DNA of 64,000 nt from Kiritimatiellia bacterium (GTDB lineage: Bacteria > Verrucomicrobiota > Kiritimatiellia > RFP12 > UBA1067): assembly GCA_017514235.1 (NCBI GenBank), contig JAFWKK010000016.1:2221-66220 (forward strand), read 5' to 3'. The notes under the pieces were generated by a model. It searched no databases. It was not told where the DNA came from and was given only the letters and a program-made list of their open reading frames with translations. Shown in pieces: positions 4,223-64,000 of the stretch. The stretch's first letter is position 1. Each line of letters begins with the position of its first letter. Made by a program: the position numbers and the translations under genes.

Positions 4223-4231
4223 TGGTATAAT
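4223..4231 (+). promoter_or_regulatory. Extended -10 box TGGTATAAT (cysE operon)
   Basis: Exact TGnTATAAT, 10 nt before ATG 4242, with no Shine-Dalgarno. Confidence 0.6.
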
Positions 4232-4241
4232 ATGCCGTGAC

Positions 4242-4988
4242 ATGACATTGCCCCAGAGAGTCGAGCGGATCGTTCGGCGCGGGCTTGCCGTACTGCATCC
4301 GTGCGTATACGGCGAGCTTGGCGCCGCTTCTGCCGTTGCCGACCTGGCGGCCGACCTGGAGCGCGAAATCGCGCTGCTCATGACGGAAGAGGACGCCAGG
4401 CGGATTTCCGCCGCTTTCGTTGCCGCGTTGCCGGAGGTGAAGCGGCTGGTGGAGTCCGACGTCATTGCGGCATACGAGGGCGATCCGGCGGCGACTAGCC
4501 GCATGGAGGTGGTGATGGCTTATCCAGGCCTCTACGCGGTGACTGTTCACCGGCTGGCGCACGAGCTCTACCGAATGAAAGTTCCGATCATTCCGCGAGT
4601 GATGTCCGAGCTGGCGCATTCGAAGACCGGCATCGACATACATCCCGGCGCGACGATAGGCGAGAGGTTTTTCATCGACCACGGCACTGGCGTCGTCATC
4701 GGCGAGACGACGGTGATAGGCAGGAACGTGAAGCTCTACCAGGGCGTCACGCTGGGCGCTCTCTCGTTCGACAAGGATCCGGTCACTGGCGCACTCGTCA
4801 AGGGCGTCAAGCGACATCCAAACGTAGAGGACAACGTGGTGATCTATGCCGGTGCGACCATTCTCGGCGGCGGCACCGTCATCGGGCACGATTCAGAAAT
4901 TGGCGGCAACGTTTGGCTTAAGGATTCCGTTCCGCCCAACTCTCGCGTCTACAACCGGCCGCCCGCGCCGTCGATAAGGACGAAATGA
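4242..4988 (+). CDS. cysE: Serine O-acetyltransferase
   Basis: GIDIHPGATIGERFFIDHGTGVVIGETTVIGRNVKLYQGVTLGA is the canonical SAT hexapeptide core. The gene sits just downstream of a TGGTATAAT box. Confidence 0.9.
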   Translation: MTLPQRVERIVRRGLAVLHPCVYGELGAASAVADLAADLEREIALLMTEEDARRISAAFVAALPEVKRLVESDVIAAYEGDPAATSRMEVVMAYPGLYAVTVHRLAHELYRMKVPIIPRVMSELAHSKTGIDIHPGATIGERFFIDHGTGVVIGETTVIGRNVKLYQGVTLGALSFDKDPVTGALVKGVKRHPNVEDNVVIYAGATILGGGTVIGHDSEIGGNVWLKDSVPPNSRVYNRPPAPSIRTK

Positions 4989-5956
4989 TCGGTCTTCTAC
5001 TCGCCCTTGCCCTTGACGTGGGGATGTTGCAGGAGGCCGTCGAGGTCTTTGCTCCTGCCCTTGATGTCTTTCTTGCTGCCGGCGAGCGGAGCCGCGCCTA
5101 CGATGAGTTTCAGCGAGAGATGGGCCGAGAGGATTCGCAGATGTCTCTTTCAGATGCGGTTGAAGTGCTGGAGATCCTTGGAAACAGGTTCTACTTCGAC
5201 GCGGACGGCGAGCTGTGGTACGACGACCGTTTCGTGCGTCCCGACGAGATGGGGGCGATCGAGGCCGTGAACCGGTTTTACCGCAAGCACTTTTCGGATG
5301 CGTCGGCGAAGGCCCGTGCAACGGCTCCGGAGAAGAAGTCGCCTGCCGCGGCTGTCGTCAAGCCCGTTGCAGTGAAGACGCCGAAACTACCGGTCTTCCG
5401 CGGATACGAAGACGCCCGCTACCAGCAGTACGACGATCTCATACTGCGCATGGTGGCCGACTTCAACGCTCGGCGCGGCGAATGGGCCGCGTCCACGCCG
5501 GAGCAGGCGAAGCTGATCCACGACCTGTCGCCGGAGCTGGTGAAGTCGCACATGATAGAGGAGACTGGGGGATGCGACAGCAAGAGCCTGGCGGCCTGGA
5601 AGGTCGATCCTCAGCAGGTCAATGTGCCCGGCGACTGGAATCCGTACAAGGAGCAGCTTGGCCTCAGAAAGCCGGAGCGCCGCAACGAAGGCACCAGCGA
5701 GCAGAACGTCCGGGCGGCGGTCATGTATCTTGCCAGAAAGGGCTTCGGCGTGTCCGGCCAGCCTGCGGCCAACCGCCCCGAGGGTCGCTTTGACGACTGG
5801 TATACGGCCTTGGAACGCTACAACGGACGCAGTGACAAGGTGCAGGACGGGCGGCTTTATCGCAACGTCTACGCCGAACGCATCGTCCGCCGCGCGTACG
5901 AGCCGAAGTCATTCGTGCCGATTTCAATCGTCAGCCGCGGGAGGTCTGCGAAATGA
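4985..5956 (+). CDS. Hypothetical exported protein with lysozyme/SLT-like C-terminal region
   Basis: ATGA overlap with the cysE stop. Hydrophobic N-terminus. SHMIEETGG...VRAAVMYLARKG...WYTALERYNG resembles a lytic transglycosylase Glu-containing core. It is a paralog of the next gene. Confidence 0.6.
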   Translation: MIGLLLALALDVGMLQEAVEVFAPALDVFLAAGERSRAYDEFQREMGREDSQMSLSDAVEVLEILGNRFYFDADGELWYDDRFVRPDEMGAIEAVNRFYRKHFSDASAKARATAPEKKSPAAAVVKPVAVKTPKLPVFRGYEDARYQQYDDLILRMVADFNARRGEWAASTPEQAKLIHDLSPELVKSHMIEETGGCDSKSLAAWKVDPQQVNVPGDWNPYKEQLGLRKPERRNEGTSEQNVRAAVMYLARKGFGVSGQPAANRPEGRFDDWYTALERYNGRSDKVQDGRLYRNVYAERIVRRAYEPKSFVPISIVSRGRSAK

Positions 5957-6711
5957 TTTTCTGCGCAGTGCTTCTTGCCGCGCTGAAGGTGCTGACTGCG
6001 TTAGGCGCTTCGGGTGAATTCTCGGAGCAGGTTGCCGTCGGCGAGGAGGCCGTGCTTGAGAAGGCCGGCCGGCTCGTTTCCGCGCAGAACGGTCGGCGCG
6101 CGAAATGGGAGCGCTATCTCGGCCTGATGGGCTTGCGCGAGTCGCGGCCGTCCCTGGCATCGGTACGCTACCGCCTGTCGGTGGGGCGTCGCGTGTATTC
6201 GTTCACTGTCTACGGCAGGCTTTTCATAGACATCCGGTTCGTCCGTGACGACGAGATGGCGGACGTACTGGCGGTGGAGAGGCTGTTCCGCGAGATGCAC
6301 GCGCGCAGCCCCTGGCGTGGCGAAGCGTTGCGCGACCCGTGGAAGGAGCCGTTGGCGCTTTGCGGCTACGAGGACGGTCGCTTTGCGAGTCTTGACGCTC
6401 CGATAGAGCGTCTCGTAGGCGACTTCAACCGAACTCGTCCCGAGCGCGTGCACGAGCTTTCGCCACGGCTGTTCAAGGCGTTCGTGATAGAGGAGTCGTA
6501 CTGGCGCGGAGGGGAAGTTTCAGAAGGCGAACTGAAGTCCGCGATGTCGCGCCTGGCTGCAGCCGGAAGCCGAAAGGATGGCGCGTTCTGCGGCTGGTAC
6601 GTTGCGCTTCAGAATGCGCGAGACGCCGACTTCGCCGAGCGGGTTGCGGCGAGGAGCAGCCATCCTGAGTTGTTCGTGCCCGTCAGGGCTTGGAAGGAGA
6701 AACAGCAATGA
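5953..6711 (+). CDS. Hypothetical exported protein, shorter paralog of 4985..5956
   Basis: ATGA overlap with the upstream gene. Signal-like N-terminus MIFCAVLLAALKVLTALGA. Blocks shared with the upstream gene: FVRDDEM, GYEDGRF...RLVGDFN, ELSPRLFKAFVIEES, WYVAL, FVPV. Confidence 0.55.
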   Translation: MIFCAVLLAALKVLTALGASGEFSEQVAVGEEAVLEKAGRLVSAQNGRRAKWERYLGLMGLRESRPSLASVRYRLSVGRRVYSFTVYGRLFIDIRFVRDDEMADVLAVERLFREMHARSPWRGEALRDPWKEPLALCGYEDGRFASLDAPIERLVGDFNRTRPERVHELSPRLFKAFVIEESYWRGGEVSEGELKSAMSRLAAAGSRKDGAFCGWYVALQNARDADFAERVAARSSHPELFVPVRAWKEKQQ

Positions 6712-7826
6712 GTCTGTCAGTCGGCATAGTAGGCTTGCCTAACGTCGGGAAGTCCACGCTCTTCAATGCGCTCACGAAACGGCAGCAGGCGGCCGCCGAG
6801 AACTATCCGTTCTGCACAATCGAGCCGAACACCGCCGTGGTCGAGGTTTCCGACGCACGGTTGGACGAGCTTGCCAAGATCGCCAAGCCCGAGCAGGTCA
6901 TCCGTGCGACCGTGGCGTTCACCGACATCGCCGGGCTTGTGAAGGGCGCGTCAAAGGGAGAAGGTCTCGGCAACAAGTTCCTCGCCAACATACGCGAATG
7001 CGACGCCGTGCTGCATGTCGTAAGGTGCTTCGAGAACGACGACATCATCCATGTGCAGGAGGGCGGCGGCAAGTCAGCCCCGATAGATCCCGTGGGCGAT
7101 GCGGAGGTGATTGAGACTGAACTGATTCTTGCTGACATGGAGCAGCTTCAGAAGCGGTTCGACAAGATCCGCAAGGAGGCGCAGGCCAAGCCGCAGCTGC
7201 GTCCCGAGGCTGAGGCTTGCGAGGCATTGCTCAAGCACCTTGGCGAAGGCTCCCCGGTGCGAAGCTTCCCGCGTTCTGAGGGTGATCCGATCCTAAACGT
7301 GCTGAAGGAGCTTAATTTCCTCACCGACAAGAAGGTGATATACTGCGCCAACGTGGCCGACGACGACGTGACTGGCGATTCGAATCCGCATGTCGCGGCG
7401 CTGCGGGAATATGCGGCCCGGCAGAGTTGCGAGACGGTCGTCGTCTGCGCGCAGATGGAGGCCGACCTTGCCGGGCTCTCCGACGACGAAGCCAAGGAAT
7501 TCCTGCAGAGCTACGGACTGGAGGAGTCGTCGCTGGATCGGACCATCAAGCTGGCGTACGAGACGCTGGGTCTGGCGAGCTTCCTGACTGCCGGGCCAAA
7601 GGAGGTTCGGGCCTGGACCTTCCACCGCGGCTGGAAGGCGCCGAAGTGCGCGGGCGTAATTCACACTGACTTCGAGAAGGGGTTCATACGGGCGCAGGTC
7701 GTCGCTTTCGACGATTACGTGAAGTATGGCGGCGAGGCTGGCGCGCGCGAACACGGTGCGCTTCGTCCCGAAGGCAGGGACTACGAGATGCGTGACGGCG
7801 ACGTCGTGGAGTTCCTGTTCAACTGA
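6708..7826 (+). CDS. ychF: Ribosome-binding ATPase YchF
   Basis: MSLSVGIVGLPNVGKSTLFNALT P-loop, a full-length YchF/OLA1 pattern and a C-terminal TGS-like end DGDVVEFLFN. ATGA overlap with the upstream gene; GGAAGGAGA lies upstream. Confidence 0.95.
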   Translation: MSLSVGIVGLPNVGKSTLFNALTKRQQAAAENYPFCTIEPNTAVVEVSDARLDELAKIAKPEQVIRATVAFTDIAGLVKGASKGEGLGNKFLANIRECDAVLHVVRCFENDDIIHVQEGGGKSAPIDPVGDAEVIETELILADMEQLQKRFDKIRKEAQAKPQLRPEAEACEALLKHLGEGSPVRSFPRSEGDPILNVLKELNFLTDKKVIYCANVADDDVTGDSNPHVAALREYAARQSCETVVVCAQMEADLAGLSDDEAKEFLQSYGLEESSLDRTIKLAYETLGLASFLTAGPKEVRAWTFHRGWKAPKCAGVIHTDFEKGFIRAQVVAFDDYVKYGGEAGAREHGALRPEGRDYEMRDGDVVEFLFN

Positions 7827-7848
7827 CGGTCCGGACACGGGGCGCTGC

Positions 7849-8433
7849 ATGAAGGTTGTGGTAGGATTGGGGAATCCGGGCCCGCAGTATGCGGACACTC
7901 CGCACTCCGTCGGTTTTGAGGCGGTTGACCGCATCGCATCCGCGGCTGGCGCGACGTGGGAGGCGAAGCGTGCCTTCCGGTGCTTCATGGCGAAGTGTGT
8001 CATCGAAGGGCAGCAGGTCTTGCTCGTTAAGCCGCAGACGTTCATGAACCTCTCCGGCGAGTCCGTCGCTCCTGTCGTTAGGTATAACAACGCCACTCCG
8101 GCCGATCTCGTCGTGGTGCAGGATGACATTGACCTTCCTGTCGGACGACTCCGTGTCCGCACGGGCGGAAGCTGCGGCGGACACAACGGCATAAGGAACA
8201 TAATCGAGAGACTCGGGACAGGAGCCTTCGTGCGCGTGAAGATCGGCGTCGGCAAGGACCGCGGCAACGTCGTAGGGCATGTGCTCGGCAAGTTCGACCC
8301 CGAGACGCGCAAGGTGATCGACGTCGTGATCGAGAAGGCCGCAGACGCCGTCGGGACCGTGCTCCGCGACGGCCCGGAAAGGGCTATGAACGCATTCAAC
8401 GCATTCAATGCCGTTCCGGCTCCTGAAGGCTGA
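7849..8433 (+). CDS. pth: Peptidyl-tRNA hydrolase
   Basis: MKVVVGLGNPGPQYADTPHSVGF... and GGHNGIRNI motifs. The internal ATG at 7849 gives the typical length of about 194 aa. Confidence 0.93.
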   Translation: MKVVVGLGNPGPQYADTPHSVGFEAVDRIASAAGATWEAKRAFRCFMAKCVIEGQQVLLVKPQTFMNLSGESVAPVVRYNNATPADLVVVQDDIDLPVGRLRVRTGGSCGGHNGIRNIIERLGTGAFVRVKIGVGKDRGNVVGHVLGKFDPETRKVIDVVIEKAADAVGTVLRDGPERAMNAFNAFNAVPAPEG

Positions 8434-8457
8434 GTCGTCCACATCCCTCGCGATTTT

Positions 8458-8466
8458 TGGTATAAT
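8458..8466 (+). promoter_or_regulatory. Extended -10 box TGGTATAAT (ftsB-like gene; leaderless)
   Basis: 7 nt between the -10 box and ATG 8474. Confidence 0.6.
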
Positions 8467-8473
8467 CTTCAAC

Positions 8474-8764
8474 ATGAACGAAAGCCTGAAAGACAAAGTC
8501 GTCGGGTATCTGACGTATTTCGTGCTTGCGTTGATCGCGGTCGGCGGCGTCATGATGATGTATCCTGACTACCGCCGCAGCGAATCGCTGAAGCGGCAGA
8601 ACGCTGAGCTTCAGGAGCGGATCGACCGTCGCAAGCGCGAGATAGAGCAGCTCGTCGACAACCAGCGCCGATTCAAGACGGACGCCGATTTCGTCGAGAA
8701 GATAGCTCGCACGAACCACCGGGTCTTTCCCGGCGAACTGGTGTTCATCTTCGAAAAGGACTGA
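8474..8764 (+). CDS. Septum formation initiator (FtsB/DivIC-like)
   Basis: 96 aa with one TM segment, then a coiled coil (LKRQNAELQERIDRRKREIEQL) and the end ARTNHRVFPGELVFIF. The ATG lies 7 nt after TGGTATAAT. Confidence 0.7.
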   Translation: MNESLKDKVVGYLTYFVLALIAVGGVMMMYPDYRRSESLKRQNAELQERIDRRKREIEQLVDNQRRFKTDADFVEKIARTNHRVFPGELVFIFEKD

Positions 8765-8775
8765 CGGCGGGTAGG

Positions 8776-11891: not shown

Positions 11892-11906
11892 CATGTGCGC
11901 ACCCCC

Positions 11907-12976
<1,070 letters not shown>

Positions 12977-13003
12977 CGGCGTGTCATTGAGACATTGCGG
13001 ACA

Positions 13004-13036
13004 AGAGACGGCTTTCGGGCCGTCTCTTTCCGTCTT
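13004..13036 (+). terminator. Intrinsic terminator after gap
   Basis: AGAGACGGC / GCCGTCTCT is a perfect 9-bp stem with a 6-nt loop, followed by TTCCGTCTTT. Confidence 0.75.
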
Positions 13037-13092
13037 TATGCGCCGTGCAGGGCGCCCCTTTGACACTTGCGCTTTACGTGACGGGGTCGATT

Positions 13093-13101
13093 TGCTATCA
13101 T
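13093..13101 (+). promoter_or_regulatory. Extended -10 box TGCTATCAT (nagA / glycan locus; leaderless)
   Basis: 7 nt between the -10 box and ATG 13109. It lies downstream of the gap terminator. Confidence 0.5.
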
Positions 13102-13108
13102 ACCTTTG

Positions 13109-14299
13109 ATGAAAGCGATTAAAGGAAGCTTTGTCATAACGGGCGCGCGGGTCGTGACGCCGGGAAGGGATCTAGGCGTGACGCCGGTGCGCGTAGAGGC
13201 GGGTCGAATCGCCGCCGTAGGCGCTGACGTCGCAAAGAAGGAAGGCGACGGGCTTGTCGAGGCGGATGGGCTGACGCTTCTTCCAGGGTTCGTGGACATA
13301 CATTCGCACGGCCGAGGCGGCGCCGACTTCTGCGATGCCACGGACGACGCATTCGACACGATCGGCCGTGGAAAGCTGAAAGACGGCGTGACCGGTTTTC
13401 TCGCGACAGGGCTGACGCGTCCCGAGGAGGAGCTTGCGGAACTCTGTAGCTGCGCCGAGCGCTACAAGAAGCGTGCAGAAGGCTCAAGTTGCCTTGGCGT
13501 CCACCTGGAAGGGCCTTTCTTCAACGCTGATATGGCAGGCGCCCAGAACCCGGCGTATCTCCGCAAGCCTGATGCGGCGTTCGTGAAACGCCTTGATTCA
13601 GTTTCGCCCGTGAAGAAGGTCTCGCTTGCACCGGAGTTGGACGGTGCCGAGGAATGCATACGCGAACTGACGGCGGCGGGGATCGTGACGTCTGGCGGAC
13701 ATTCCACTGCCGACTACGATGCGTTCGAGACGGCGCGCGCGGCAGGAATGACGCACCTTACGCACTTCTGCAACGCTATGATGCCGATCCATCACCTTCG
13801 CCCCACGATGGTGACTGGCGGGCTGCTTGCAGATGACGTGTACGTCGAGATAATCACGGACGGCGTGCACCTCTCCGACCCCATGATACGTCTCATCTCA
13901 AGGGCGAAGGGGCCTGGTCGCGTCATGATCATTACGGACGCGATGTGCGCTGCCGGCGAGCCGGACGGCATGTACTCGCTCGGCGGCTTGCGCGTCAAGG
14001 TGGAGCGAGGCAGGGCGACGCTGGCGGACGTGCCGTACGATCCGAAGGCAGTAGTCTCTAATGTCGCAGGGTCAGTTGCGCTCTTCCCCGACTGCTTCCG
14101 TCGCTTCGTGCGTGTCGCAGGCTGGCCGCTCCACGAGGCGGTCAAGGCGGCTGGATACAACCAGCTTCGCTCGCTAGGCATAATGGATCGCGGCGAGATC
14201 GCGCCGGGGCAGGTTGCCGACCTCGTGCTTCTTGACGGTTCACTGACGCCGCGTATTACGGTTTCTGGCGGAAACATAAAAACCTCAATAGAGACATGA
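13109..14299 (+). CDS. nagA: N-acetylglucosamine-6-phosphate deacetylase
   Basis: GFVDIHSHGRGGADF, HLEGPFF and LTHFCNAM motifs. The ATG lies 7 nt after the TGCTATCAT box. Confidence 0.9.
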   Translation: MKAIKGSFVITGARVVTPGRDLGVTPVRVEAGRIAAVGADVAKKEGDGLVEADGLTLLPGFVDIHSHGRGGADFCDATDDAFDTIGRGKLKDGVTGFLATGLTRPEEELAELCSCAERYKKRAEGSSCLGVHLEGPFFNADMAGAQNPAYLRKPDAAFVKRLDSVSPVKKVSLAPELDGAEECIRELTAAGIVTSGGHSTADYDAFETARAAGMTHLTHFCNAMMPIHHLRPTMVTGGLLADDVYVEIITDGVHLSDPMIRLISRAKGPGRVMIITDAMCAAGEPDGMYSLGGLRVKVERGRATLADVPYDPKAVVSNVAGSVALFPDCFRRFVRVAGWPLHEAVKAAGYNQLRSLGIMDRGEIAPGQVADLVLLDGSLTPRITVSGGNIKTSIET

Positions 14300-17827: not shown

Positions 17828-17836
17828 TGGTATAAT
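17828..17836 (+). promoter_or_regulatory. Extended -10 box TGGTATAAT (five-module repeat protein)
   Basis: Lies in an AT-rich 170-nt intergenic region. A leader of about 55 nt carries AAGGAAA before ATG 17894. Confidence 0.6.
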
Positions 17837-17893
17837 GCATGCATGAAACATTGTATCACTTGTGTAATGTTATCTTAAATCAAAGCAAGGAAA

Positions 17894-35736: not shown

Positions 35737-35743
35737 GCTCTGT

Positions 35744-35752
35744 ATTATAACA
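35744..35752 (-). promoter_or_regulatory. Extended -10 box TGTTATAAT on the minus strand (XylR-like regulator; leaderless)
   Basis: The reverse complement reads ATCTGTTATAATACAGAGCATG, with 7 nt between the -10 box and the ATG at 35736. Confidence 0.6.
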
Positions 35753-35762
35753 GATCTCCGTG

Positions 35763-35802
35763 GCGTTTTGTGCAGATGGATTGTAAAAAGTACAGTTGAT
35801 TT
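35763..35802 (+). promoter_or_regulatory. Conserved 40-nt upstream element, copy 2
   Basis: See copy 1. It lies between the divergent regulator promoter and the LamG-protein promoter. Confidence 0.7.
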
Positions 35803-35825
35803 CATGGAGATAGATTAAGTATAAT
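35796..35825 (+). promoter_or_regulatory. Promoter TTGATT-18 nt-TATAAT (LamG protein operon)
   Basis: The -35 is embedded in the conserved element. The leader to ATG 35908 is about 80 nt. Confidence 0.6.
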
Positions 35826-40392: not shown

Positions 40393-40401
40393 TGGTAAAA
40401 T
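40393..40401 (+). promoter_or_regulatory. Extended -10 box TGGTAAAAT (Tat phosphatase gene)
   Basis: Followed by ACC, matching the TGGTAnAATAC pattern. AAGGAGGA Shine-Dalgarno lies before ATG 40443. Confidence 0.45.
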
Positions 40402-40442
40402 ACCTTCATCAAGGTTTCAGCAATCCAAGGAGGACTTCTGTG

Positions 40443-41768
40443 ATGGATCAGAGCAGGCGCGAGTTCTTGACGAACACGGCTTGGAAGGGTGCTGCCGCAA
40501 TGGCGGCGGCAGGTGCTGCAAAATGCGGCATGGGGATGCTTCCAAGCGAACAGGCCGCTTACGACAGGTACAACGCGCTGACGATACCAAGGCCTGACGG
40601 CATTCTGGACGGAGAGCCGGTTCTGCAGGTCCCGGCGCCTGACTCGATGGGCGTTGCGTTCGCCGTGACTGCGCTTGCGAACGGTTTTGTGGAATTGGCG
40701 GACAATGCCCAGATGAAAGGTTCCGTGCGGTTCATGGCGGAGGGAATGCCGCAGGCAGGCATCGACGACCGCGTGCTGCAGGTGCGGATGACCGGACTCA
40801 AGTCCGGAACGAGGTACTGGTACCGTGCCGGAGCGGCGAAGCTTGAGCACCCGGTCGGCTACTGGACGAAGCCGTCGGAGATCGTATGGAGCGCGGTCCA
40901 CACGTTCGTCACCCCCGGCGAAAACGCGCCGTCCCACTTCGGCATGATGTGCGACACGCACGCCCACTTCGAGCAGATGGGGAAGATCACGAAGAAGTAC
41001 CGTGAGCTTGGCGTACCGCTGATGGTCTGGAACGGCGACATTCCTCGGAGTCTCACGAACAATCGAGAGGATTTCGTTCGGCACTATCTCGTGCCGCCGC
41101 ACAACGCAGGATACGCCGCAGACACGCCGATCATCCTGAACCGAGGCAACCATGACTACCGCGGCACTGCGGTGAAGCGCCTGGGAGAAGTGATGATGCC
41201 GCGCCTGCCGACAGAGCGTTCGGCGCGCGACTTCGCGCTCGACCGCAACTTTGCGTTCCGCATGGGGGAAGTCGCGCTTATAGGGCTTGACACCGGGGAG
41301 GACAAGCCAGACCATCATCCCGCCAACGGAGGCCTGTCCAGGTTTACCCCGTTCCGCATAGCGCAGACAGAGTGGCTGAGGGATCAGTTCAAGCGTCCGG
41401 AGATAGCAAGAGCTCCGTACGTCGTTGCATTCGTGCACATACCTTTGATCGAGCTTTGGCCCGGGGCCAACCCAGGGACGCTGCTTGAAGACTATGCCGT
41501 ATGGCAGAAGGAGTGCGCGGACCTGTGGGGCCCGATCCTCACCGAAAACAAGGCGCAGCTTGTCCTCGCCGGTCATATCCACCGTTACCGCTACGATGCC
41601 GCGACGCCGACGCGCTCGTGGGCGGAGATAGTGGGCGGAGGACGCGGGGACAGAACGTTTCAGACGCTGGTCGAGGGAAAGGTTGAGAACGGTCGGCTAG
41701 TGATACGCGTCTACAACACAGACGCCGGAACTGTCGTAGGCGAACATGTCTTCGCCCCGCGTGCATAA
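40443..41768 (+). CDS. Tat-signal purple-acid-phosphatase-like metallophosphoesterase
   Basis: MDQSRREFLTNTAWKGAAAMAAAGAA signal after AAGGAGGA. N-terminal PAP-like beta domain (LKSGTRYWYR). MMCDTHAH, WNGDI, RGNHDYRG and AGHIHRYRY motifs. Confidence 0.8.
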   Translation: MDQSRREFLTNTAWKGAAAMAAAGAAKCGMGMLPSEQAAYDRYNALTIPRPDGILDGEPVLQVPAPDSMGVAFAVTALANGFVELADNAQMKGSVRFMAEGMPQAGIDDRVLQVRMTGLKSGTRYWYRAGAAKLEHPVGYWTKPSEIVWSAVHTFVTPGENAPSHFGMMCDTHAHFEQMGKITKKYRELGVPLMVWNGDIPRSLTNNREDFVRHYLVPPHNAGYAADTPIILNRGNHDYRGTAVKRLGEVMMPRLPTERSARDFALDRNFAFRMGEVALIGLDTGEDKPDHHPANGGLSRFTPFRIAQTEWLRDQFKRPEIARAPYVVAFVHIPLIELWPGANPGTLLEDYAVWQKECADLWGPILTENKAQLVLAGHIHRYRYDAATPTRSWAEIVGGGRGDRTFQTLVEGKVENGRLVIRVYNTDAGTVVGEHVFAPRA

Positions 41769-44816: not shown

Positions 44817-44825
44817 TGGTATAAT
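44817..44825 (+). promoter_or_regulatory. Extended -10 box TGGTATAAT (etfBA; leaderless)
   Basis: 7 nt between the -10 box and ATG 44833. Confidence 0.65.
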
Positions 44826-44832
44826 ACGCAGC

Positions 44833-45630
44833 ATGAGAACCTACAACTGCGTTGTCTGCGTCAAGCAGGTGCCGGACACCAAGAAGGTGACGGGCGATGC
44901 CATGAAGGCGGACGGTACTATCAACCGGGCGGCACTGCCGGCGATATTCAATCCTGAAGACAGGAATGCGCTTGAGGCCGCGCTCTACGTCAAGGAGACC
45001 TACGGCGGAACGGTAACCGTTGTCACTATGGGGCTTCCGGCGGCGAAGGCGGTCCTCCGCGAGGCGCTGATGTGTGGGGCTGACAGGGCGGTGCTGCTAA
45101 CCGACCGCAAGGCCGCCGGCTCCGACACTTTGGCGACTAGCTACATACTCTCGCAGGCTGTCAGGAAGCTCAATCCTGACCTTGTGTTCTGCGGACGCCA
45201 GGCCATCGACGGCGACACGGCGCAGGTCGGTCCGCAGATCGGCGAGAAGCTTGATTATGCGGTCGTGACGTACCTTGAGAAGCTGGTGCTGGACGGAGAC
45301 TACGCCGTGGCGACGCGTGACATCGGAACTGGCATCGAGACCTGCCGCGTGCAGCTGCCCGCTCTCTTCACGGTCACCGAGAAATTCGGCGAACTGCGTC
45401 CCTTCCAGATGCGCCGGGTGATGAAGTACAAGGACGCCGAGCCGGAGGTTCTTTCTTGCGACGACGTGGGCTGCGCGCCGGAGCGATGCGGCTTCGCAGG
45501 GTCGCCCACGAACGTCAACAAGATCATGTCTGTCGTGCTGGCCGGCGGCGAGTTCAAGGAGGTTCCGGCGACGGACGAGGGAATAGGCGGGCTCGTCAGC
45601 GAGCTGATTGCGGACCATACGATCGGTTAA
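44833..45630 (+). CDS. etfB: Electron transfer flavoprotein beta subunit
   Basis: MRTYNCVVCVKQVPDTKKV start; 265 aa; canonical EtfB pattern. The ATG lies 7 nt after TGGTATAAT. Confidence 0.92.
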   Translation: MRTYNCVVCVKQVPDTKKVTGDAMKADGTINRAALPAIFNPEDRNALEAALYVKETYGGTVTVVTMGLPAAKAVLREALMCGADRAVLLTDRKAAGSDTLATSYILSQAVRKLNPDLVFCGRQAIDGDTAQVGPQIGEKLDYAVVTYLEKLVLDGDYAVATRDIGTGIETCRVQLPALFTVTEKFGELRPFQMRRVMKYKDAEPEVLSCDDVGCAPERCGFAGSPTNVNKIMSVVLAGGEFKEVPATDEGIGGLVSELIADHTIG

Positions 45631-47994: not shown

Positions 47995-48003
47995 TGGTAT
48001 AAT
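47995..48003 (+). promoter_or_regulatory. Extended -10 box TGGTATAAT (acyl-CoA dehydrogenase)
   Basis: Embedded in the palindrome TTGGTATAATACCAA. A leader of about 55 nt carries GGAGAA before ATG 48067. Confidence 0.6.
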
Positions 48004-48066
48004 ACCAACCAAACGGTGCGGCAACGGCATGGTGTTCGGTTTGCCTCACGGACAGGAGAAAAATTA

Positions 48067-49800
48067 ATGGGCAATTTCTACGAAGACAACAAGGACATCG
48101 CGGCGACGATCGACGTGCTCGACCTCACTGAGGTCGCGACGCTGTTGGAGGAAAACTTCCGCTTCGCCGAAGAGTACGACTTCGCGCCGAAGGACGCGGC
48201 GTCTGCAATCGACAACTACAAGAGGGCGCTCTCGCTCTGCGGCGACATCTGCGCGAACAGGATCGCCCCGACGGCCGAGGAGACGGACAAGGTAGGCAAC
48301 GTCCTGAACGAGGACGGCACGGTTACCTATGCGCCAGGCATCAAGCTCGCGATCAAGCTCCTCGGAGGCTCTGGCCTTATGGGCGCCACGATCCCATACC
48401 GACTCGGCGGACTCAACATGCCGTGCGTGGTGCTGACGGCCCTGAATGATATCGTTTCGCGCGCCGACGCTTCGCTCATGAACATGTTCGGGCTACAGGG
48501 CATTGCCGAGACGATCAACGCTTTTGCCGACGAGGACCTGAAGCAGAAGTACGTGCCGAAGCTTGTCACAGGCGAGTATACCGGCGCTATGGTGCTTACA
48601 GAGCCTGACGCCGGGTCTGACCTGCAGAGCGTAAAGGTGTCTGCGCACCAGGATGCGGACGGCAACTGGTTCGTGAACGGCGTCAAGCGCTTCATCACCA
48701 ACGGCTGCGGAGATGTCCTTATCGTTCTCGCCCGCACCGAGCCTGAGTTCTCGGACGGGCGCGGGCTCAGCTGCCTCTTGGTCGAGAAGGGCCCATGGGT
48801 GAAGGTGCGCCGTCTGGAGCACAAGCTCGGAATCAACGGTTCGCCTACGTGCGAGCTCGTGTTCAACGAGGCGCCTGCGAAACTTATAGGCTTGCGCAAG
48901 CGCGGGCTCATCACGTACATAATGGCGCTCATGAACGGCGCCCGCATGGGCATTGCCGCGCAAGGCACGGGCATCGGCGAGGCCGCGTACCGCGCCGCGC
49001 GCGACTACGCGGCAAGCCGCAAGCAGTTCGGCACGACGATCGACACGTTCCCTGCGGTTCGCGACTTGCTCTGCGGAATGTCCGTCGACGTGCAGGCGAG
49101 CCGTGCGCTCGCTTACTATGCGGCGAAGTGCGTGGATCTGGAAACGGGGCTCTCCCGCGCCTTCGAGAAGGCAAAGGGCACCCCCGAGGCTCCGGCCCTG
49201 CGTACGCGCATGAAGCTCTACGGCGGATTCAACAAGATGCTCACGCCGATGGCGAAGTATTTCGCGTCCGAGATGTCGATGCGCGTCTCCAACGGTGCGG
49301 TCGCGGTTCTTGGCGGCTCCGGCTACATGAAGGACTACCCGGTCGAACGCTATCTGCGCGACGCCCGCATAACTACGATATACGAGGGCACGTCGCAGCT
49401 GCAGGTGGTGGCGGCCATCGCAGGCGTAACCGGCGGACTGGTTGCTGCCGTCGTCAATGACATTCTTGGAGAAGGCTGGTCGTCCGCGCATCCGCGCATG
49501 GCGGCGCTTCTCTCGTCGCTTGACGAGGCAATCGCATACGTGAAAGGCCGCGAGGATGCGAAGGACTACCACGACCTCTCGGCGCGGCGGCTCGTCGACG
49601 CCGGAATCGCGCTTGTCGTCGCCGCGCTCTTCGTGAAGCTGGAGGAGAAGGGCGTAGCCGGAAAGCACGAAGCGCTCTGGTACTGGCTGAACGTGGAGTT
49701 CCCGCGCGTGCGCGCCGGCCTCGAAGTCGTCAAGGGCGGTTATGCCGGCGCGGTGACAGACTTCGAGGCGCTTGCTCCTGCCGTACCCAATCTCGACTGA
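48067..49800 (+). CDS. Acyl-CoA dehydrogenase (long, ~577 aa form)
   Basis: GGAGAAAAATTA then ATG. MVLTEPDAGSDL, RFITNG and YEGTSQLQ motifs. Confidence 0.9.
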   Translation: MGNFYEDNKDIAATIDVLDLTEVATLLEENFRFAEEYDFAPKDAASAIDNYKRALSLCGDICANRIAPTAEETDKVGNVLNEDGTVTYAPGIKLAIKLLGGSGLMGATIPYRLGGLNMPCVVLTALNDIVSRADASLMNMFGLQGIAETINAFADEDLKQKYVPKLVTGEYTGAMVLTEPDAGSDLQSVKVSAHQDADGNWFVNGVKRFITNGCGDVLIVLARTEPEFSDGRGLSCLLVEKGPWVKVRRLEHKLGINGSPTCELVFNEAPAKLIGLRKRGLITYIMALMNGARMGIAAQGTGIGEAAYRAARDYAASRKQFGTTIDTFPAVRDLLCGMSVDVQASRALAYYAAKCVDLETGLSRAFEKAKGTPEAPALRTRMKLYGGFNKMLTPMAKYFASEMSMRVSNGAVAVLGGSGYMKDYPVERYLRDARITTIYEGTSQLQVVAAIAGVTGGLVAAVVNDILGEGWSSAHPRMAALLSSLDEAIAYVKGREDAKDYHDLSARRLVDAGIALVVAALFVKLEEKGVAGKHEALWYWLNVEFPRVRAGLEVVKGGYAGAVTDFEALAPAVPNLD

Positions 49801-51107: not shown

Positions 51108-51129
51108 GTTCCACGCATGGAACGCTTTT
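51108..51129 (+). terminator. Intrinsic terminator after the SHOCT-like gene
   Basis: GTTCCA-CGCA-TGGAAC is a 6-bp stem with a tetraloop, followed by GCTTTTC. Confidence 0.5.
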
Positions 51130-51211
51130 CGTGTCCCATGCACAGCCAACAAGCGCGAATCAAGATTCTGTCGCATTTGCCCCGTCCAGATGCGCGAACG
51201 GATGCGGATTT

Positions 51212-51220
51212 TGGTATAAT
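51212..51220 (+). promoter_or_regulatory. Extended -10 box TGGTATAAT (GNAT gene; leaderless GTG start)
   Basis: 7 nt between the -10 box and the in-frame GTG 51228. Confidence 0.55.
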
Positions 51221-51227
51221 ACGTCGA

Positions 51228-51719
51228 GTGGAACGGAATACGACAGTAAGGCCGGCGACGCTGAAGGACGCGGAGACGATCTATGCGCTTATAGACCGCC
51301 ACCGCGACGAGCTGGTGCCGCGGTCGCTCGGCAACGTAGTCGAGTCGATAGACCGGTTCGTCGTCGCCGAGTGCGACGGCGAGACAGCCGGTTGCGCCGC
51401 CTACCAGATACACCCTGAGATCGGCAACGCCGAGGCCGCTACGGTCGAGATAGTGTCCGTCGCCGTCGACCGGCAGTTCCGCATGCGCGGGATCGGGCGG
51501 AAGTTGGTTGAAGCCGTAGTGGACGGGGTGCGCCGTTTTCGTCCGCACGAGGTGATGGTCCTCACGTTCGCGCCTGGATTCTTCGGCAAGCTCGACTTCG
51601 TGGAGTTCCCGAAGACGGAAATAATGCACAAGCTCTACACCGGGTGCATCAACTGCACGAAGCACGCCAATCCTTACACGTGCCCTGAAGTCGCGATGCG
51701 GCGCAGGCTGGATTCTTGA
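51228..51719 (+). CDS. GNAT family N-acetyltransferase
   Basis: In-frame GTG 7 nt after TGGTATAAT. VAVDRQFRMRGIGRKLVE acetyl-CoA binding motif. C-terminal Cys cluster CINCTKHANPYTCPE. Confidence 0.75.
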   Translation: MERNTTVRPATLKDAETIYALIDRHRDELVPRSLGNVVESIDRFVVAECDGETAGCAAYQIHPEIGNAEAATVEIVSVAVDRQFRMRGIGRKLVEAVVDGVRRFRPHEVMVLTFAPGFFGKLDFVEFPKTEIMHKLYTGCINCTKHANPYTCPEVAMRRRLDS

Positions 51720-52602: not shown

Positions 52603-52607
52603 TCCCG

Positions 52608-53824: not shown

Positions 53825-54282
53825 GACGGATCTGCCTGTTCGTTGCAAGCGGCCTTGGCCTCGGTCTTGTCGCGCCGTTCGCACCGGGAACGTTCGGGTC
53901 GCTTCCGGGCGTCGCGCTCGCCTACGCCACGACTGCACTGTCGCTTCCGCTGCAGATCGCGGCATGCGCTGCGCTTGCGTTTATGGCGGTCCCGATATGC
54001 GGCGCGGCGGAACGTGCGTTCGGCATCAAGGACGACGGGCGCATAGCTGCTGACGAATGGATGCTCTACCCGATCGCGCTCGTCGGCATTCCGCTCGCGT
54101 CTCTCCCGTGGTGGTCGATGGCCGTTTTTTTCTGCGTGGTGCGCGCCGTAGACATTCTGAAGCCGTGGCCGTGCCGCGGGCTGCAGGCCCTGCCGGGCGG
54201 CTGGGGCGTCGTTCTCGACGACCTTGTCGCGAACCTCTATTCGCTGGCGGTCAATTGGACGATTGCCGCAAGTATGCTATAA
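53821..54282 (+). CDS. pgpA: Phosphatidylglycerophosphatase A
   Basis: GTG start. GLGLGLVAPFAPGTFGSLPGV, DDGRIAADEW and GWGVVLDDLVANLY motifs. Confidence 0.85.
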   Translation: MRRICLFVASGLGLGLVAPFAPGTFGSLPGVALAYATTALSLPLQIAACAALAFMAVPICGAAERAFGIKDDGRIAADEWMLYPIALVGIPLASLPWWSMAVFFCVVRAVDILKPWPCRGLQALPGGWGVVLDDLVANLYSLAVNWTIAASML

Positions 54283-54283
54283 T
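54275..54283 (+). promoter_or_regulatory. Extended -10 box TGCTATAAT (lptF/G; leaderless)
   Basis: 8 nt to ATG 54292. The pgpA stop codon TAA (54280-54282) lies inside the TATAAT hexamer. Confidence 0.55.
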
Positions 54284-54291
54284 AGGCGGCG

Positions 54292-55389
54292 ATGAGAATA
54301 CTTACTCGCTACGTCCTCAGGGAGTTCCTGGTCCCGCTGTTTTACTGCCTGACCGGGTTCATTTCCATCTACGTGCTGTTCGACCTGTTCGGGTCGTTCT
54401 CGCGGATGGCGGCGGCGAAGCTTCCGGCAAAAACGGCTGCGCTGTACTTCTGCGGATACCTGGCCCCCTATTTCCATTACATCGTGCCAGCCGCGCTGAT
54501 GCTGGCTACGCTCTACACAATGTGGAGCTTCTGCCGACACTCGGAGATCGTCGCCATGCGCGCGAGCGGCGTGAGCTTCATCGCGATCGTCCGTCCTCTC
54601 CTGTCCGTCGCTCTTGTGATGGCGGCTTGCGTAGCATACGTGAACGAGGTCTTCGTGCCGCAGAAGGCGCAGTGGGCGGCACAGATGAAGAAAGACCGCT
54701 TCGACCAGGCCAGCATGTCCAAGGGCGACAACATCGTCTTCCGCAACGCACAGGCCGGTCGCATCTGGAACATTGATGCGTTTCGCGACGAGGAGGGCAA
54801 GAGCCTCTCGAACGTCCAGGTCACGATAGACCGTCCGGGCGGGGGGCGGTGCATGAGCGTGTCTGCGCCGAGGGCCGACTATCTTGACGGAGAGTGGTGG
54901 TTCTTCGGTCCCAAGGTGCAGCATTACGGCGCACAGGGTCAGGAGATTGCGACACCGGTGCCTGAACTGGACGCGCTGCCGCTTCGGTGCTTCAGCGATT
55001 TCGGGGAGCGTCCGACGGACTTTGTCATGCAGAACCGTCCGTGGAAGTTCAATTCCGTGCGGGACCGCCTGCGCTATCTCCGCACCCACCCAGAGCTCTC
55101 CGCCGAGACCCGGCGCGACTGCGTGTACGATGTCTGGGCGCAGATTGCGGCGCCATGGGCCTGCATCGTGATCACGCTTTTTGCCATTCCGGCCGGCATC
55201 GCGTCGGGGAGGCAGTCAGTCTTTCGCGGAATCATCGGGGCCCTGGCCATGTACTTCTCGTTCTACGGCGTCGTCATCGCCGGAATGGTCGCTGCCAAGA
55301 ACGGATGGTGTCCGGCGATCCTTGCCGCGCTTTTCCCGTACGCGCTCTTCCTGGCGCTGGGCGTCCGCGCGTTCTGGAAGCAGCGTTGA
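54292..55389 (+). CDS. LptF/LptG family lipopolysaccharide export permease
   Basis: MRILTRYVLREFLVPLFYCLTGFISIYVLFDLF is the YjgP/YjgQ N-terminus; 365 aa with TM segments at both ends. The ATG lies 8 nt after TGCTATAAT. Confidence 0.85.
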   Translation: MRILTRYVLREFLVPLFYCLTGFISIYVLFDLFGSFSRMAAAKLPAKTAALYFCGYLAPYFHYIVPAALMLATLYTMWSFCRHSEIVAMRASGVSFIAIVRPLLSVALVMAACVAYVNEVFVPQKAQWAAQMKKDRFDQASMSKGDNIVFRNAQAGRIWNIDAFRDEEGKSLSNVQVTIDRPGGGRCMSVSAPRADYLDGEWWFFGPKVQHYGAQGQEIATPVPELDALPLRCFSDFGERPTDFVMQNRPWKFNSVRDRLRYLRTHPELSAETRRDCVYDVWAQIAAPWACIVITLFAIPAGIASGRQSVFRGIIGALAMYFSFYGVVIAGMVAAKNGWCPAILAALFPYALFLALGVRAFWKQR

Positions 55390-55415
55390 CAAGGCGGAAG
55401 GGAATTTGGTAAACT
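55386..55415 (+). promoter_or_regulatory. Promoter TTGACA-18 nt-TGGTAAACT (leader peptide and aromatic supraoperon)
   Basis: Perfect -35, which overlaps the lptF/G stop TGA at 55387-55389. An extended -10 is present. The leader-ORF ATG lies 11 nt downstream. Confidence 0.65.
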
Positions 55416-55426
55416 ATTCGCGTCAC

Positions 55427-55492
55427 ATGAACAAGAGCTACCAGATCAAGTGGTTTTACTACTTCGGCTTTACGCCGGGGCGGGCCTGTTAG
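55427..55492 (+). CDS. Candidate aromatic-amino-acid leader peptide (21 aa: MNKSYQIKWFYYFGFTPGRAC)
   Basis: The ATG lies 11 nt after a TTGACA-18 nt-TGGTAAACT promoter. 7 of 21 residues are aromatic, with the run W-F-Y-Y-F-G-F. A terminator-like hairpin follows, and the ORF lies upstream of pheA and the aro genes. Confidence 0.6.
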   Translation: MNKSYQIKWFYYFGFTPGRAC

Positions 55493-55528
55493 CGCTGCGT
55501 TCAGATGACATCGGTCATGAATGAAGAC

Positions 55529-55571
55529 AACGGCCCCGCTCCACAGAAGCGAGGCCGTTTCTCGTTCTCGG
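55529..55571 (+). terminator. Attenuator-type terminator between the leader ORF and pheA
   Basis: AACGGCCCCGCT / AGCGAGGCCGTT pairs at 11 of 12 positions and is GC-rich. The loop is CCACAGA and the tail TCTCGTTCTC is pyrimidine/U-rich. Confidence 0.55.
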
Positions 55572-55614
55572 CCATTCTCCGCAAGAAAGACGATCGAAAG
55601 GAAGAGTCAATCGA

Positions 55615-56763
55615 ATGAAAAATCTGGAAGAGGCACGAAAGGAAATAGACGACATCGACGGACGGTTGGTGCCGCTCCTCAAGAGGCGCCTGGAAATCGC
55701 TGGCGACGTGCTGCGGGCCAAGATCGAGAAGGGCTTGCCGATTCTCGACCCGGCGAGAGAACGCGAGGTGATGGCACGGGTCGCCGAGGAGATCGGCTCC
55801 GGAATGGAAGACGAAGCACGTCTCGTCTTCACCACTCTGTTTGCCATTTCCCGCGCAAGGCAGCGTTCCGCGCTTCCGGACAGGTGTGCGCTTGGAACCG
55901 AGATCGCCGATGCGGTCGCTGCTGCAGGCGGCAAGGCATTCCCGTCGCGCGCCACGGTCGCCTGCCCTGGCACGGAGGGAAGCTATTCGCAGCAGGCGCT
56001 GTGCGCGATGGTCAAGTTCCCGTCGATACTCTACTTCAAGGGGTTTGAGGACGTGTTCATGGCCGTCGAGAAGGGAATGTGCGATTACGGCGTGTTGCCG
56101 ATCGAGAACTCGAAGGCTGGCAGCGTTACCGCAGTCTACGACCTGATGGCACGGCACTCGTTCCGGATAGTCCGTGCGACGCGCCTTCGAATTCACCACG
56201 TGCTGCTTGCCCCGAAGGGCGTGCAGATATCCGACTTGCGCGAAATCACGAGCCACCCTCACGCGCTCGCCCAGTGCGCCAACTTCCTTGCTGCCCATCC
56301 CGGAATCAGGTGCGTGCCGGCGTCCAACACGGCTGCCGCAGCGAAAGAGCTTGCCTCATCAGGGCGTCGCGACAGCGCCGTGATAGCATCGCGCGAGTGC
56401 GCTGTGCTTTACGGGCTCGAGCCGATCGCCGAGGAAGTCTCCGACACCACCAGCAACTTCACCCGCTTCATCTGCATATCAAAACGCGGCGAGATATATC
56501 CGAAGGCGAACAAGATGTCGCTGCTGATGAGCCTCGGGCACCGGCCCGGAGCTCTGGCCGACGTGTTGGTGCGCTTCGCCGCCGTTGGCGTAAACCTCAC
56601 GAAGCTCGAATCGCGGCCCGTGGAAGGGTCGGACTTCGAGTTCCGTTTCATCTTCGAGCTGGAGGCGTCGGTCAATGACGAGCGGACGGTGCGGCTGCTC
56701 ACCGGCCTTGCCAACGACCCGGACATCGAACACTTCACGTTCCTCGGCGCTTACGAGGAATAA
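55615..56763 (+). CDS. pheA: Bifunctional chorismate mutase / prephenate dehydratase
   Basis: N-terminal AroQ-type CM (IDDIDGRLVPLLKRRLEIA), then a PDT domain (ACPGTEGSYSQQA...TSHPHALAQC) and a C-terminal ACT (SLLMSLGHRPGALADVL...ESRP). Confidence 0.92.
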   Translation: MKNLEEARKEIDDIDGRLVPLLKRRLEIAGDVLRAKIEKGLPILDPAREREVMARVAEEIGSGMEDEARLVFTTLFAISRARQRSALPDRCALGTEIADAVAAAGGKAFPSRATVACPGTEGSYSQQALCAMVKFPSILYFKGFEDVFMAVEKGMCDYGVLPIENSKAGSVTAVYDLMARHSFRIVRATRLRIHHVLLAPKGVQISDLREITSHPHALAQCANFLAAHPGIRCVPASNTAAAAKELASSGRRDSAVIASRECAVLYGLEPIAEEVSDTTSNFTRFICISKRGEIYPKANKMSLLMSLGHRPGALADVLVRFAAVGVNLTKLESRPVEGSDFEFRFIFELEASVNDERTVRLLTGLANDPDIEHFTFLGAYEE

Positions 56764-56805
56764 CGAGCCGGATTTCCATGGAATGACAGGTAAAGGAGTG
56801 CTGAA

Positions 56806-57819: not shown

Positions 57820-57820
57820 T

Positions 57821-62664: not shown

Positions 62665-62688
62665 CAGCAGTTTCAAAGGAGGAACAAC

Positions 62689-63333
62689 ATGAATAGCAAA
62701 GAGAAAGTCAAGGCATGCCTTGCGGCGACGAAGGTCGTCGCAATCATTCGCGGAATGGCGCCTGAAACATGCGTCAGGCTGGCGGAGGCATATCATGAGG
62801 GCGGCATACGCCTGGTGGAGGTCACGTTCGACCAGACAGGCGACCCGGAGGCTACTGTGGCGGCCGTTCGGGCGGTTCGTGCGGCGTATCCCGACATGCA
62901 TGTCGGCGCCGGGACCGTCGTGACGGCAACCCAACTGGACCGTGCGATCGCCGCAGGGGCGGAATTCATCGTCACGCCGAACTGCAATCCACAGATCATC
63001 AGCGCGGCCGGGACCGCCGGGCTTGTCACGATGCCTGGCACGTTCACGCCGACGGAAATGGAGATAGCTCACGAGGCAGGTGCCGACTACGTCAAGGTTT
63101 TCCCGGTCCGCGCGTTAGGTCCGGCATACGTCAAGGACGTCCTTGCCCCTCTGAAGCATCTGAAGCTGATTGCCGTCGGAGGCGTGTCGCCGGAGAATGC
63201 TGCGGACTACATCAAGGCCGGCTGCATCGGCGTCGGTGCAAGCGGCTCGCTGGTGAACAAGGAATGGATTGCGGCAGGCGAGTACGGTCGTATAGCCGAC
63301 GTCGCCCGGAGGCTCGTTGAAAATTGCCGTTGA
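62689..63333 (+). CDS. KDPG/KHG aldolase family protein (second Eda paralog), last gene of the aromatic operon
   Basis: AAAGGAGGA Shine-Dalgarno 24 nt after the aroE/K stop. VVAIIRG, VEVTFDQ, GAGTVV, IVTPN, MPGTFTPTE, VKVFP and AVGGV motifs. Confidence 0.8.
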   Translation: MNSKEKVKACLAATKVVAIIRGMAPETCVRLAEAYHEGGIRLVEVTFDQTGDPEATVAAVRAVRAAYPDMHVGAGTVVTATQLDRAIAAGAEFIVTPNCNPQIISAAGTAGLVTMPGTFTPTEMEIAHEAGADYVKVFPVRALGPAYVKDVLAPLKHLKLIAVGGVSPENAADYIKAGCIGVGASGSLVNKEWIAAGEYGRIADVARRLVENCR

Positions 63334-63381
63334 CCGAGCCCGTTGCCGCAGGAGTCGAGAACAGCCGGCGAATCGCAGATA

Positions 63382-63390
63382 TGATATAAT
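63382..63390 (+). promoter_or_regulatory. Extended -10 box TGATATAAT (batA-like gene)
   Basis: 17 nt before ATG 63408, with no Shine-Dalgarno. Confidence 0.5.
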
Positions 63391-63407
63391 ACGCTTCAAA
63401 AGCGATT

Positions 63408-64000
63408 ATGAAATTTGCGAATCCGATGTTCCTGTTGCTTGTCGCGGCGGTTCCGCTTGCGGGGCTCTTCTGGGCGTTCCTGCGGGCACGGCGTGAAAAG
63501 TCGCTCGACAGGTTGGTGGCGCCGTCGTTGCGCCATCGGCTGATGCCGGCCGGCGTCAACCTTTGGGGTCTTCAGGCATGGCTTATACTTGTAGGAATGT
63601 TCCTATGCCTGTTCGCCGCGTCGCGTCCGCAGTGGGGCAAGACGACCGAACGGACGGTGGAGCGCAGCCGCAACGTGGTGGTTGCCATAGACGTGTCGCG
63701 CTCGATGCTTGCCGAGGACGTGCGTCCGAACCGCCTGGAGCGGGCCAAGGCCGACGTCGCAGACCTCATAGACTCCCTTGAGGGAGACCGCTGCGCACTT
63801 GTGGCGTTCCGGCGCACCGGCGTAGTGATATGCCCGCTCACGACTGACCACGGCTACCTGCGCAGCGCGCTCGAGCAGCTTACGCCGGAATCCGCGCCAC
63901 GCGGCGAGACGGACCTCGGGAGCGCTATCCGGGCGTCGCTTGAGGCGCTGGATCCGGCGGCGGACGACCACAACGCTGTCATAATGATTTCAGACGGCGG
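63408..64000 (+). CDS. BatA-like membrane-anchored von Willebrand factor A domain protein (3' end outside window)
   Basis: My own translation: MKFANPMFLLLVAAVPLAGLFWAFL...VVVAIDVSRSMLAEDVRPNRLERAK...DRCALVAFR...GETDLGSAI...VIMISDGG (MIDAS DxSxS). The frame is open to the window end, so it is absent from the ORF track. Confidence 0.8.
   Translation, partial: MKFANPMFLLLVAAVPLAGLFWAFLRARREKSLDRLVAPSLRHRLMPAGVNLWGLQAWLILVGMFLCLFAASRPQWGKTTERTVERSRNVVVAIDVSRSMLAEDVRPNRLERAKADVADLIDSLEGDRCALVAFRRTGVVICPLTTDHGYLRSALEQLTPESAPRGETDLGSAIRASLEALDPAADDHNAVIMISDG

Follow-up and report, generated by a model that had tools for sequence, protein, structure and literature searches.

Extended −10 boxes abutting start codons point to frequent leaderless transcription in a Kiritimatiellia genome

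The window analysed here is the whole 64,000-nucleotide (nt) stretch at positions 2221-66220 of contig JAFWKK010000016.1 (assembly GCA_017514235.1) from an uncultured bacterium of gut or rumen (class Kiritimatiellia), and our subject is a promoter-like box that recurs in it directly upstream of start codons. Seven genes carry the box in this position: cysE, ftsB, nagA, a XylR-type regulator gene, etfB, a GNAT acetyltransferase gene and lptF/G (see the table, which also lists four leadered features). Their identities, and that of pgpA upstream of lptF/G, were borne out by Pfam (Hexapep, DivIC, Amidohydro_1, Peripla_BP_3 with HTH_18, ETF, GNAT, LptF_LptG and PgpA). Taking the spacer as the nucleotides from the last T of the hexamer to the start codon, direct reading of the sequence confirmed that the starts lie 7-8 nt behind the box (10 nt for cysE) and lack a Shine-Dalgarno sequence; neither GGAG, GAGG nor AGGA was found upstream of any of the seven. 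In nagA the hexamer proved to be TATCAT and not TATAAT. The initial annotation had counted fifteen such boxes before transcription units in the window, close to the approximately 16 box-like sites that we found ahead of genes on the coding strand (including the one at 55407), and had noticed that promoter hexamers can contain the stop codon of the preceding gene. This is so twice: the pgpA TAA (54280-54282) lies within TATAAT at 54278-54283, and the lptF/G TGA (55387-55389) within TTGACA at 55386-55391.

Table. Positions of boxes, spacers and start codons in the window
Feature	Position	Strand	Box and following sequence	Start codon
cysE-like hexapeptide transferase gene	4242-4988	+	TGGTATAAT, 4223-4231; 10-nt spacer	ATG 4242
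ftsB/DivIC gene (96 aa)	8474-8764	+	TGGTATAAT, 8458-8466; 7-nt spacer	ATG 8474
nagA-type amidohydrolase gene	13109-14299	+	TGCTATCAT, 13093-13101; 7-nt spacer	ATG 13109
XylR-type regulator gene (392 aa)	34558-35736	-	TGTTATAAT, 35752-35744; 7-nt spacer	ATG 35736
etfB	44833-45630	+	TGGTATAATAC, 44817-44827 (extended −10 part 44817-44825); 7-nt spacer	ATG 44833
GNAT acetyltransferase gene (163 aa)	51228-51719	+	TGGTATAATAC, 51212-51222 (extended −10 part 51212-51220); 7-nt spacer	GTG 51228
lptF/G	54292-55389	+	TGCTATAAT, 54275-54283; 8-nt spacer	ATG 54292
gap (GAPDH), promoter to start	11907-11977	+	perfect (12/12) TTGACA-18-TATAAT, 11907-11936; 38 nt; Shine-Dalgarno-like AAAGGAAAGG	ATG 11975
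Metallophosphatase gene, promoter to start	40393-40445	+	TGGTAAAAT, 40393-40401; leader with AAGGAGG	GTG/ATG 40440/40443
Acyl-CoA dehydrogenase gene, promoter to start	47995-48070	+	TGGTATAATAC, 47995-48005; ~63 nt; Shine-Dalgarno region GGAGAAAAATTA	ATG 48067/48068
21-codon ORF ahead of pheA, promoter to ORF end	55386-55492	+	TTGACA; 18 nt; TGGTAAACT (55407); 11 nt; ORF 55427-55492	
aa, amino acids; ORF, open reading frame.

The box is strongly enriched. The 9-mer TGNTATAAT occurs nine times in the window against 0.20 expected, a number reached in none of 100 shuffles, and the longer form TGGTATAATAC, allowing up to two mismatches, occurs 19 times against 2.5 expected (only three copies of the full 11-mer are free of mismatches). 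The genome as a whole (3.96 Mb in 82 contigs, 60.4% GC) holds 558 TGNTATAAT boxes. The idea that the 11-mer belongs to a repeat or mobile element was ruled out, as its copies have only the promoter core in common, sit at the starts of genes and point in the direction of the gene behind them.

A genome-wide histogram of box-to-start distances (d) had been named beforehand as the test by which the proposed spacing could be refuted, and it was strongly positive, with a peak at 7 nt. Behind the 558 boxes, ORFs of 100 aa or more opened with a start codon at 6, 7, 8, 9 and 10 nt in 44, 80, 43, 33 and 27 cases, respectively, against a baseline averaging 12.8 per offset over 11-79 nt (maximum 31). The Poisson P at 7 nt is 1e-36 and the excess comes to about 163 boxes (29%). 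A histogram centred on genes (2758 calls with 90% coverage, made from longest ORFs and a codon-usage score) gave the same peak, followed by a trough (11-18 nt), after which the counts climbed again over a broad range starting at 19 nt and peaked locally at 28 nt; this renewed climb is the leadered class, with Shine-Dalgarno sequences. Corrected for chance, approximately 210-250 genes are predicted to be leaderless, 8-9% of all genes. The term "widespread" in the initial annotation is thus a fair one, as a prediction covering ~8-10% of genes and ~30% of consensus promoters. Among 296 strong leaderless candidates just two have a Shine-Dalgarno-like 4-mer before the start, and the start codons of the leaderless set are 81% ATG, 13% GTG and 6% TTG. 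A histogram of GGAGG-to-start distances was governed by codon periodicity, leaving a usable Shine-Dalgarno signal only in the off-phase offsets (4-8 nt) and in the 7-mer AAGGAGG. A class of 1848 genes scored as having a Shine-Dalgarno sequence was dropped as a measure of its frequency, being inflated by the choice of the best among several candidate starts.

The anatomy of the box is that of a promoter. Its logo reads W-T-W-T(83%)-G(83%)-G(55%)-TATAAT-A-C/T, with a T-rich −17/−18 region upstream of the TG extension and a preference for A-C after the hexamer, and these flanks are common to leaderless and leadered boxes. Because the same box and flanks recur at variable longer distances, followed by AGGAGG, the element is better understood as a promoter than as a ribosome-binding site. 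At no position does the −35 region hold more than 0.14 bit, and it shows a faint TTGnC at 18-nt spacing; a generic sigma-70 −35/−10 scan recovered only three of the seven window promoters, since such a scan depends on a −35 element, of which little is present here. Terminator-like hairpins were not enriched (11 versus 17.7; 24 versus 18.8) and gave no help in delimiting transcription units.

The base before the start codon carries a further signature. Position −1 is C in 82% of cases at d=6 and 73% at d=7, compared with 30% of 281 ATG starts led by AGGAG. Transcription start sites generally show a pyrimidine at −1 followed by a purine at +1 (PMC4782308), and the C(−1)/A(+1) pair, the nearest thing at hand to a start-site map, would put +1 on the A or G with which the start codon opens where d is 6-7, and possibly a base ahead of it in some of the d=8-10 cases.

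The initial annotation had further proposed that several ORFs begin at the leaderless codon and not at the first possible start, and comparisons of the proteins agree with it. In ftsB, homology to relatives sets in at residue 22-25 of the 118-aa long ORF, so that 8408 is evidently not the real start. The same can be said of 35805 for xylR, whose paralogues and orthologues align from about residue 22-29 of the long ORF, and of 51117 for the GNAT gene, whose orthologues have N-termini equal in length to the proposed one. In a relative of the latter (G006) an in-frame TGA lies upstream of the same GTG at 7 nt, and another (G004) has TATAAT, 6 nt and ATG. The near-invariant N-terminus of LptF/G, MRILTRYV with minor variants only in 20 genomes, points the same way, and the Pfam model starts at residue 6; in CysE the N-terminus MTLPQR is conserved. 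The NCBI records for this 95,791-nt contig independently use the same leaderless starts, where the track ORFs 8408-8764, 34558-35805 and 51117-51719 are longer: exact look-ups returned the short forms of 96, 163, 392 and 396 aa, the last being the nagA product, for which public collections have the same form. ENA/Logan calls on sister assemblies have the long forms (118, 193 and 415 aa). NCBI's pipeline models leaderless starts. From these comparisons, the proposed codons appear to encode the true N-termini. Annotation pipelines that favour the longest ORF or insist on a Shine-Dalgarno sequence would accordingly yield N-terminally extended proteins, and predictions of signal peptides, domains and structures in uncultured Kiritimatiellia of gut and rumen would be affected.

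The arrangement of box and start recurs in relatives. TGnTATAAT lies 6-8 nt before the ATG of ftsB itself in ten of them, nine from the genus and one (G020) from another family, while two relatives have Shine-Dalgarno or coupled starts in place of the box. Most of the XylR-type paralogues and orthologues have a box of their own 6-8 nt before the ATG, and lptF/G has one at 7-8 nt in six of 20 genomes, one of these from another family. Of 34 Kiritimatiellia-type etfB loci, 24 have a box 6-10 nt ahead of an in-frame start; of 46 outgroup loci none does, and 44 have a Shine-Dalgarno-like sequence; Planctomycetota orthologues use Shine-Dalgarno leaders. The closest public etfB loci come from rumen and gut metagenome-assembled genomes labelled Kiritimatiellae or Kiritimatiellia (some mislabelled), with Planctomycetota next out. 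In two genes the spacing is kept despite a changed N-terminus: in an etfB subgroup whose products are extended by 12 residues at the N-terminus, box and ATG have shifted together, and in nagA of G006, which differs at its N-terminus, TATCAT, 7 nt and ATG are found again with no TTG codon. The cysE box stands at 10-11 nt in three genomes (including G006 and G002), and in other members of the genus the gene lies within an operon behind a GGAGG Shine-Dalgarno sequence. Taken together, these comparisons suggest that the box-to-start arrangement is conserved among relatives and under selection.

How far the trait extends was estimated by counting TGNTATAAT-N6-8-ATG against TGNTATAAT-N13-15-ATG. The counts were 183/24 in this genome; 34/4, 63/7 and 89/13 in two sister genera of its family (labelled g10 and g11); 15/6, 25/2 and 43/3 in a family labelled f10; 53/20 in family f9; and 30/7 in genus g62 of family f36. 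A genus of the same family had 0/1, and both counts were 0-5 in most of the class's other families. Samples of 400 kb, with small numbers, showed a weak excess in a genome of the same order with 66% GC (G017; 12 versus ~3 with TGnTAnnnT) and no excess in one of the same family (G123). The trait is strong in the window's genus (g1), g10, g11 and f10, weaker in f9 and f36/g62 and faint in family f6. It is missing from at least one other genus of the family and from the majority of the remaining families, an absence that is suggestive at most because the exact 9-mer under-detects in GC-richer genomes. The near-perfect extended −10 box abutting start codons may then be a recently expanded, clade-restricted trait inside Kiritimatiellia, a tentative reading whose chances we regard as close to balanced, if slightly adverse. 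Were it true, the genome would offer a natural example of a Shine-Dalgarno-using bacterium of the PVC group midway in gaining or losing leaderless initiation.

We consider it very probable that the boxes are extended −10 promoters of the sigma-70 type which, placed at start codons, give rise to mRNAs without a leader or Shine-Dalgarno sequence. They would be read by the housekeeping, sigma-70-type polymerase through the consensus W-T-W-T-G-G-TATAAT-A-C, with the −35 element vestigial. At a distance of 6-8 nt (with a tail to 10), as estimated for some 210-300 genes of the genome, RNA polymerase would initiate on, or a few bases from, the A or G of AUG or GUG, and the ribosome with initiator tRNA would recognise the 5'-terminal start codon; both the exact start sites and, by analogy with other bacteria, this mode of translation are predictions. 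Operon-internal genes and other first genes depend instead on ordinary AGGAGG Shine-Dalgarno leaders or on translational coupling.

Several observations weigh against this explanation or narrow it. Leaderless status rests on promoter geometry, and the mode of the spacing is 7 nt, not 6. A rigid discriminator of 6 nt would leave 1-4 extra bases at the 5' end, chiefly at d=8-10, as in cysE and lptF/G. Along these lines, the promoters could be real and yet many genes (d=8-10 and part of d=7) be transcribed from 1-4 nt before the start, with very short leaders devoid of a Shine-Dalgarno sequence. The tail of the spacing to 10 nt agrees with such leaders, as does the fall of C at −1 to 47% at d=8, where the preference is split with −2 (42%), and so does the 10-11 nt kept by cysE, whose predicted leader of 0-4 nt makes it near-leaderless. 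The high frequency of C at −1 in the d=6 and d=7 classes is instead in keeping with transcription beginning at the A of ATG, and we think this version unlikely as a general account. It would in any case refine the leaderless explanation without contradicting it; leaders of up to 5 nt count as leaderless in the literature. A further reservation is that the gene calls are crude, with ~90-125 of 338 raw leaderless candidates expected by chance. Moreover, 57 leaderless-type boxes lie <40 nt behind an upstream gene, as between pgpA and lptF/G, and the genes behind them may also be read from polycistronic mRNA. Finally, the 3' end of 16S rRNA, the source of the anti-Shine-Dalgarno sequence, was not found in the 82-contig assembly.

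Those same 57 candidates could be cited for a quite different view, in which the TATAAT-like motif is an A/U-rich, non-Shine-Dalgarno ribosome-binding signal on longer transcripts, of the kind known from Bacteroidota; the motif is indeed A/U-rich and sits where a ribosome-binding site would. However, the TG extension and upstream T-tract are typical of sigma-70 contacts, C(−1)A(+1) is a feature of transcription, and copies of the motif stand at variable distances ahead of genuine Shine-Dalgarno sequences as well. The motif is also 3-4 times commoner where the upstream neighbour is divergent (21% of such genes) than at internal genes lying <40 nt behind a same-strand gene (5.8%), and the hallmark of a non-Shine-Dalgarno site as defined for group B of GeneMarkS-2, the same fixed-distance motif before first and internal genes, was not found. 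We regard this view as very improbable. Slighter still is the chance that the pairing of boxes and starts is fortuitous or the starts mis-assigned, the real ones lying downstream and the boxes driving ordinary leaders. ORF-based assignment of starts is ambiguous, and ~13 chance pairs are expected per offset; against this stand the height of the peak at 7 nt, orthologous N-termini that begin at the proposed codons (MRILTRYV, MTLPQR and, for etfB, M-x-x-YNCVVC) and a Pfam model that starts within six residues for LptF/G.

Leadered genes in the same window provide the contrast. The gap promoter is its clearest full-consensus leadered example, and outside the window a nagA paralogue on contig C78 has TATAAT-N17-AAGGAGG-N6-ATG. 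As the initial annotation had stated, genes inside operons carry AAGGAGG-type sites (those at 30059, 40440, 41816, 45640, 50534, 51760, 56806 and 62689), which lie 5-9 nt ahead of their starts, or ATGA/GTGA overlaps (4985, 5953, 6708, 53821 and 60578).

Further observations concern individual loci. At 63382-63410, TGATATAAT stands 17 nt before the ATG (63408) of a VWA-domain protein, with a small hairpin between and no Shine-Dalgarno sequence; this spacing falls within the otherwise depleted 11-18 nt zone. In the stretch 17828-17893, an 11-codon ORF, MKHCITCVMLS (17842-17877), begins 6 nt behind TGGTATAAT and lies inside the ~57-nt leader of a gene for a 1141-aa protein without a Pfam match; it is possibly a leaderless upstream ORF. 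Within the ychF-type GTPase gene (6708-7826), in the stretch 7336-7355, TGATATACT and 8 nt precede an in-frame GTG at 7353; either this is chance, or a 157-aa C-terminal product could arise from it by internal leaderless initiation. The 21-codon ORF at 55427-55492 encodes the peptide MNKSYQIKWFYYFGFTPGRAC, with seven aromatic residues, and is followed by a strong hairpin with a T-rich tail (~55529-55570) and then by a pheA-type gene (55615-56763; CM_2, PDT and ACT), making 55386-55614 a candidate aromatic-amino-acid attenuator. Just upstream of the ftsB promoter, six relatives of the genus (loci L125, L128, L131, L132, L133 and L135), though not this genome, have a conserved stretch of ~45 nt (gaacgggcgTATAGTatctcac, a T-run and aagtcaatg); its other strand resembles a TTGAC-N17/18-ACTATA promoter facing away.

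Leaderless initiation is a known mechanism, and its understanding is unchanged by our findings; what is new is the lineage, for which the trait had no prior description. In our literature search no paper was found linking leaderless genes or promoter structure to Kiritimatiellae, and a survey lists them only as users of the Shine-Dalgarno sequence, in 63% of mRNAs (PMC10783764). Predicted frequent leaderless initiation is here extended to another PVC lineage, with a suggestion of variation between neighbouring families, and with the clean consensus (TTTGGTATAAT with C−1/A+1) it should be possible to predict regulons and transcription units in a lineage that lacks genetics.

Frequent leaderless transcription has been described in Actinobacteria and Deinococcus-Thermus and is modelled by GeneMarkS-2 as group C, with 25-50% of operons leaderless (bioRxiv 10.1101/193490). 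As in the members of that group (Mycobacterium, Streptomyces, Corynebacterium and Deinococcus deserti), a Pribnow box lies 6-8 nt before operon-first starts without a Shine-Dalgarno sequence and internal genes keep their Shine-Dalgarno sites, and the ~30% of consensus promoters involved here compares with the 25-50% of operons there. Unlike group C, where the −10 element is a loose TANNNT, the box here is the near-perfect extended −10 TTTGGTATAAT, and the host is a member of the PVC group that encodes LptF/G and belongs to neither of those phyla; the share of genes, ~8-10%, is well below the ~60% of Deinococcus. Closer by descent is Akkermansia muciniphila (Verrucomicrobiota), in which Cappable-seq in the mouse gut placed ~10% of mapped start sites on annotated start codons (PMC4782308). 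The two cases have in common a related phylum-level lineage, a gut habitat, a TATAAT box and the pyrimidine/purine pair at −1/+1; they differ in class, and the evidence is experimental there and predictive here.

The promoter itself recalls the extended −10 (TGn) of E. coli and the TRTGn "−16 region" of Bacillus subtilis. There, a weak or absent −35 element is offset by a TG that precedes the −10 hexamer with one base in between, and here T and G are each present in 83% of boxes with little −35 information. What sets this genome apart from E. coli and B. subtilis is the T-rich −17/−18 region, the A-C after the hexamer and the abundance of 558 perfect 9-mers in 4 Mb at 60% GC; unlike in those two organisms, the extended −10 appears to be the dominant promoter class.

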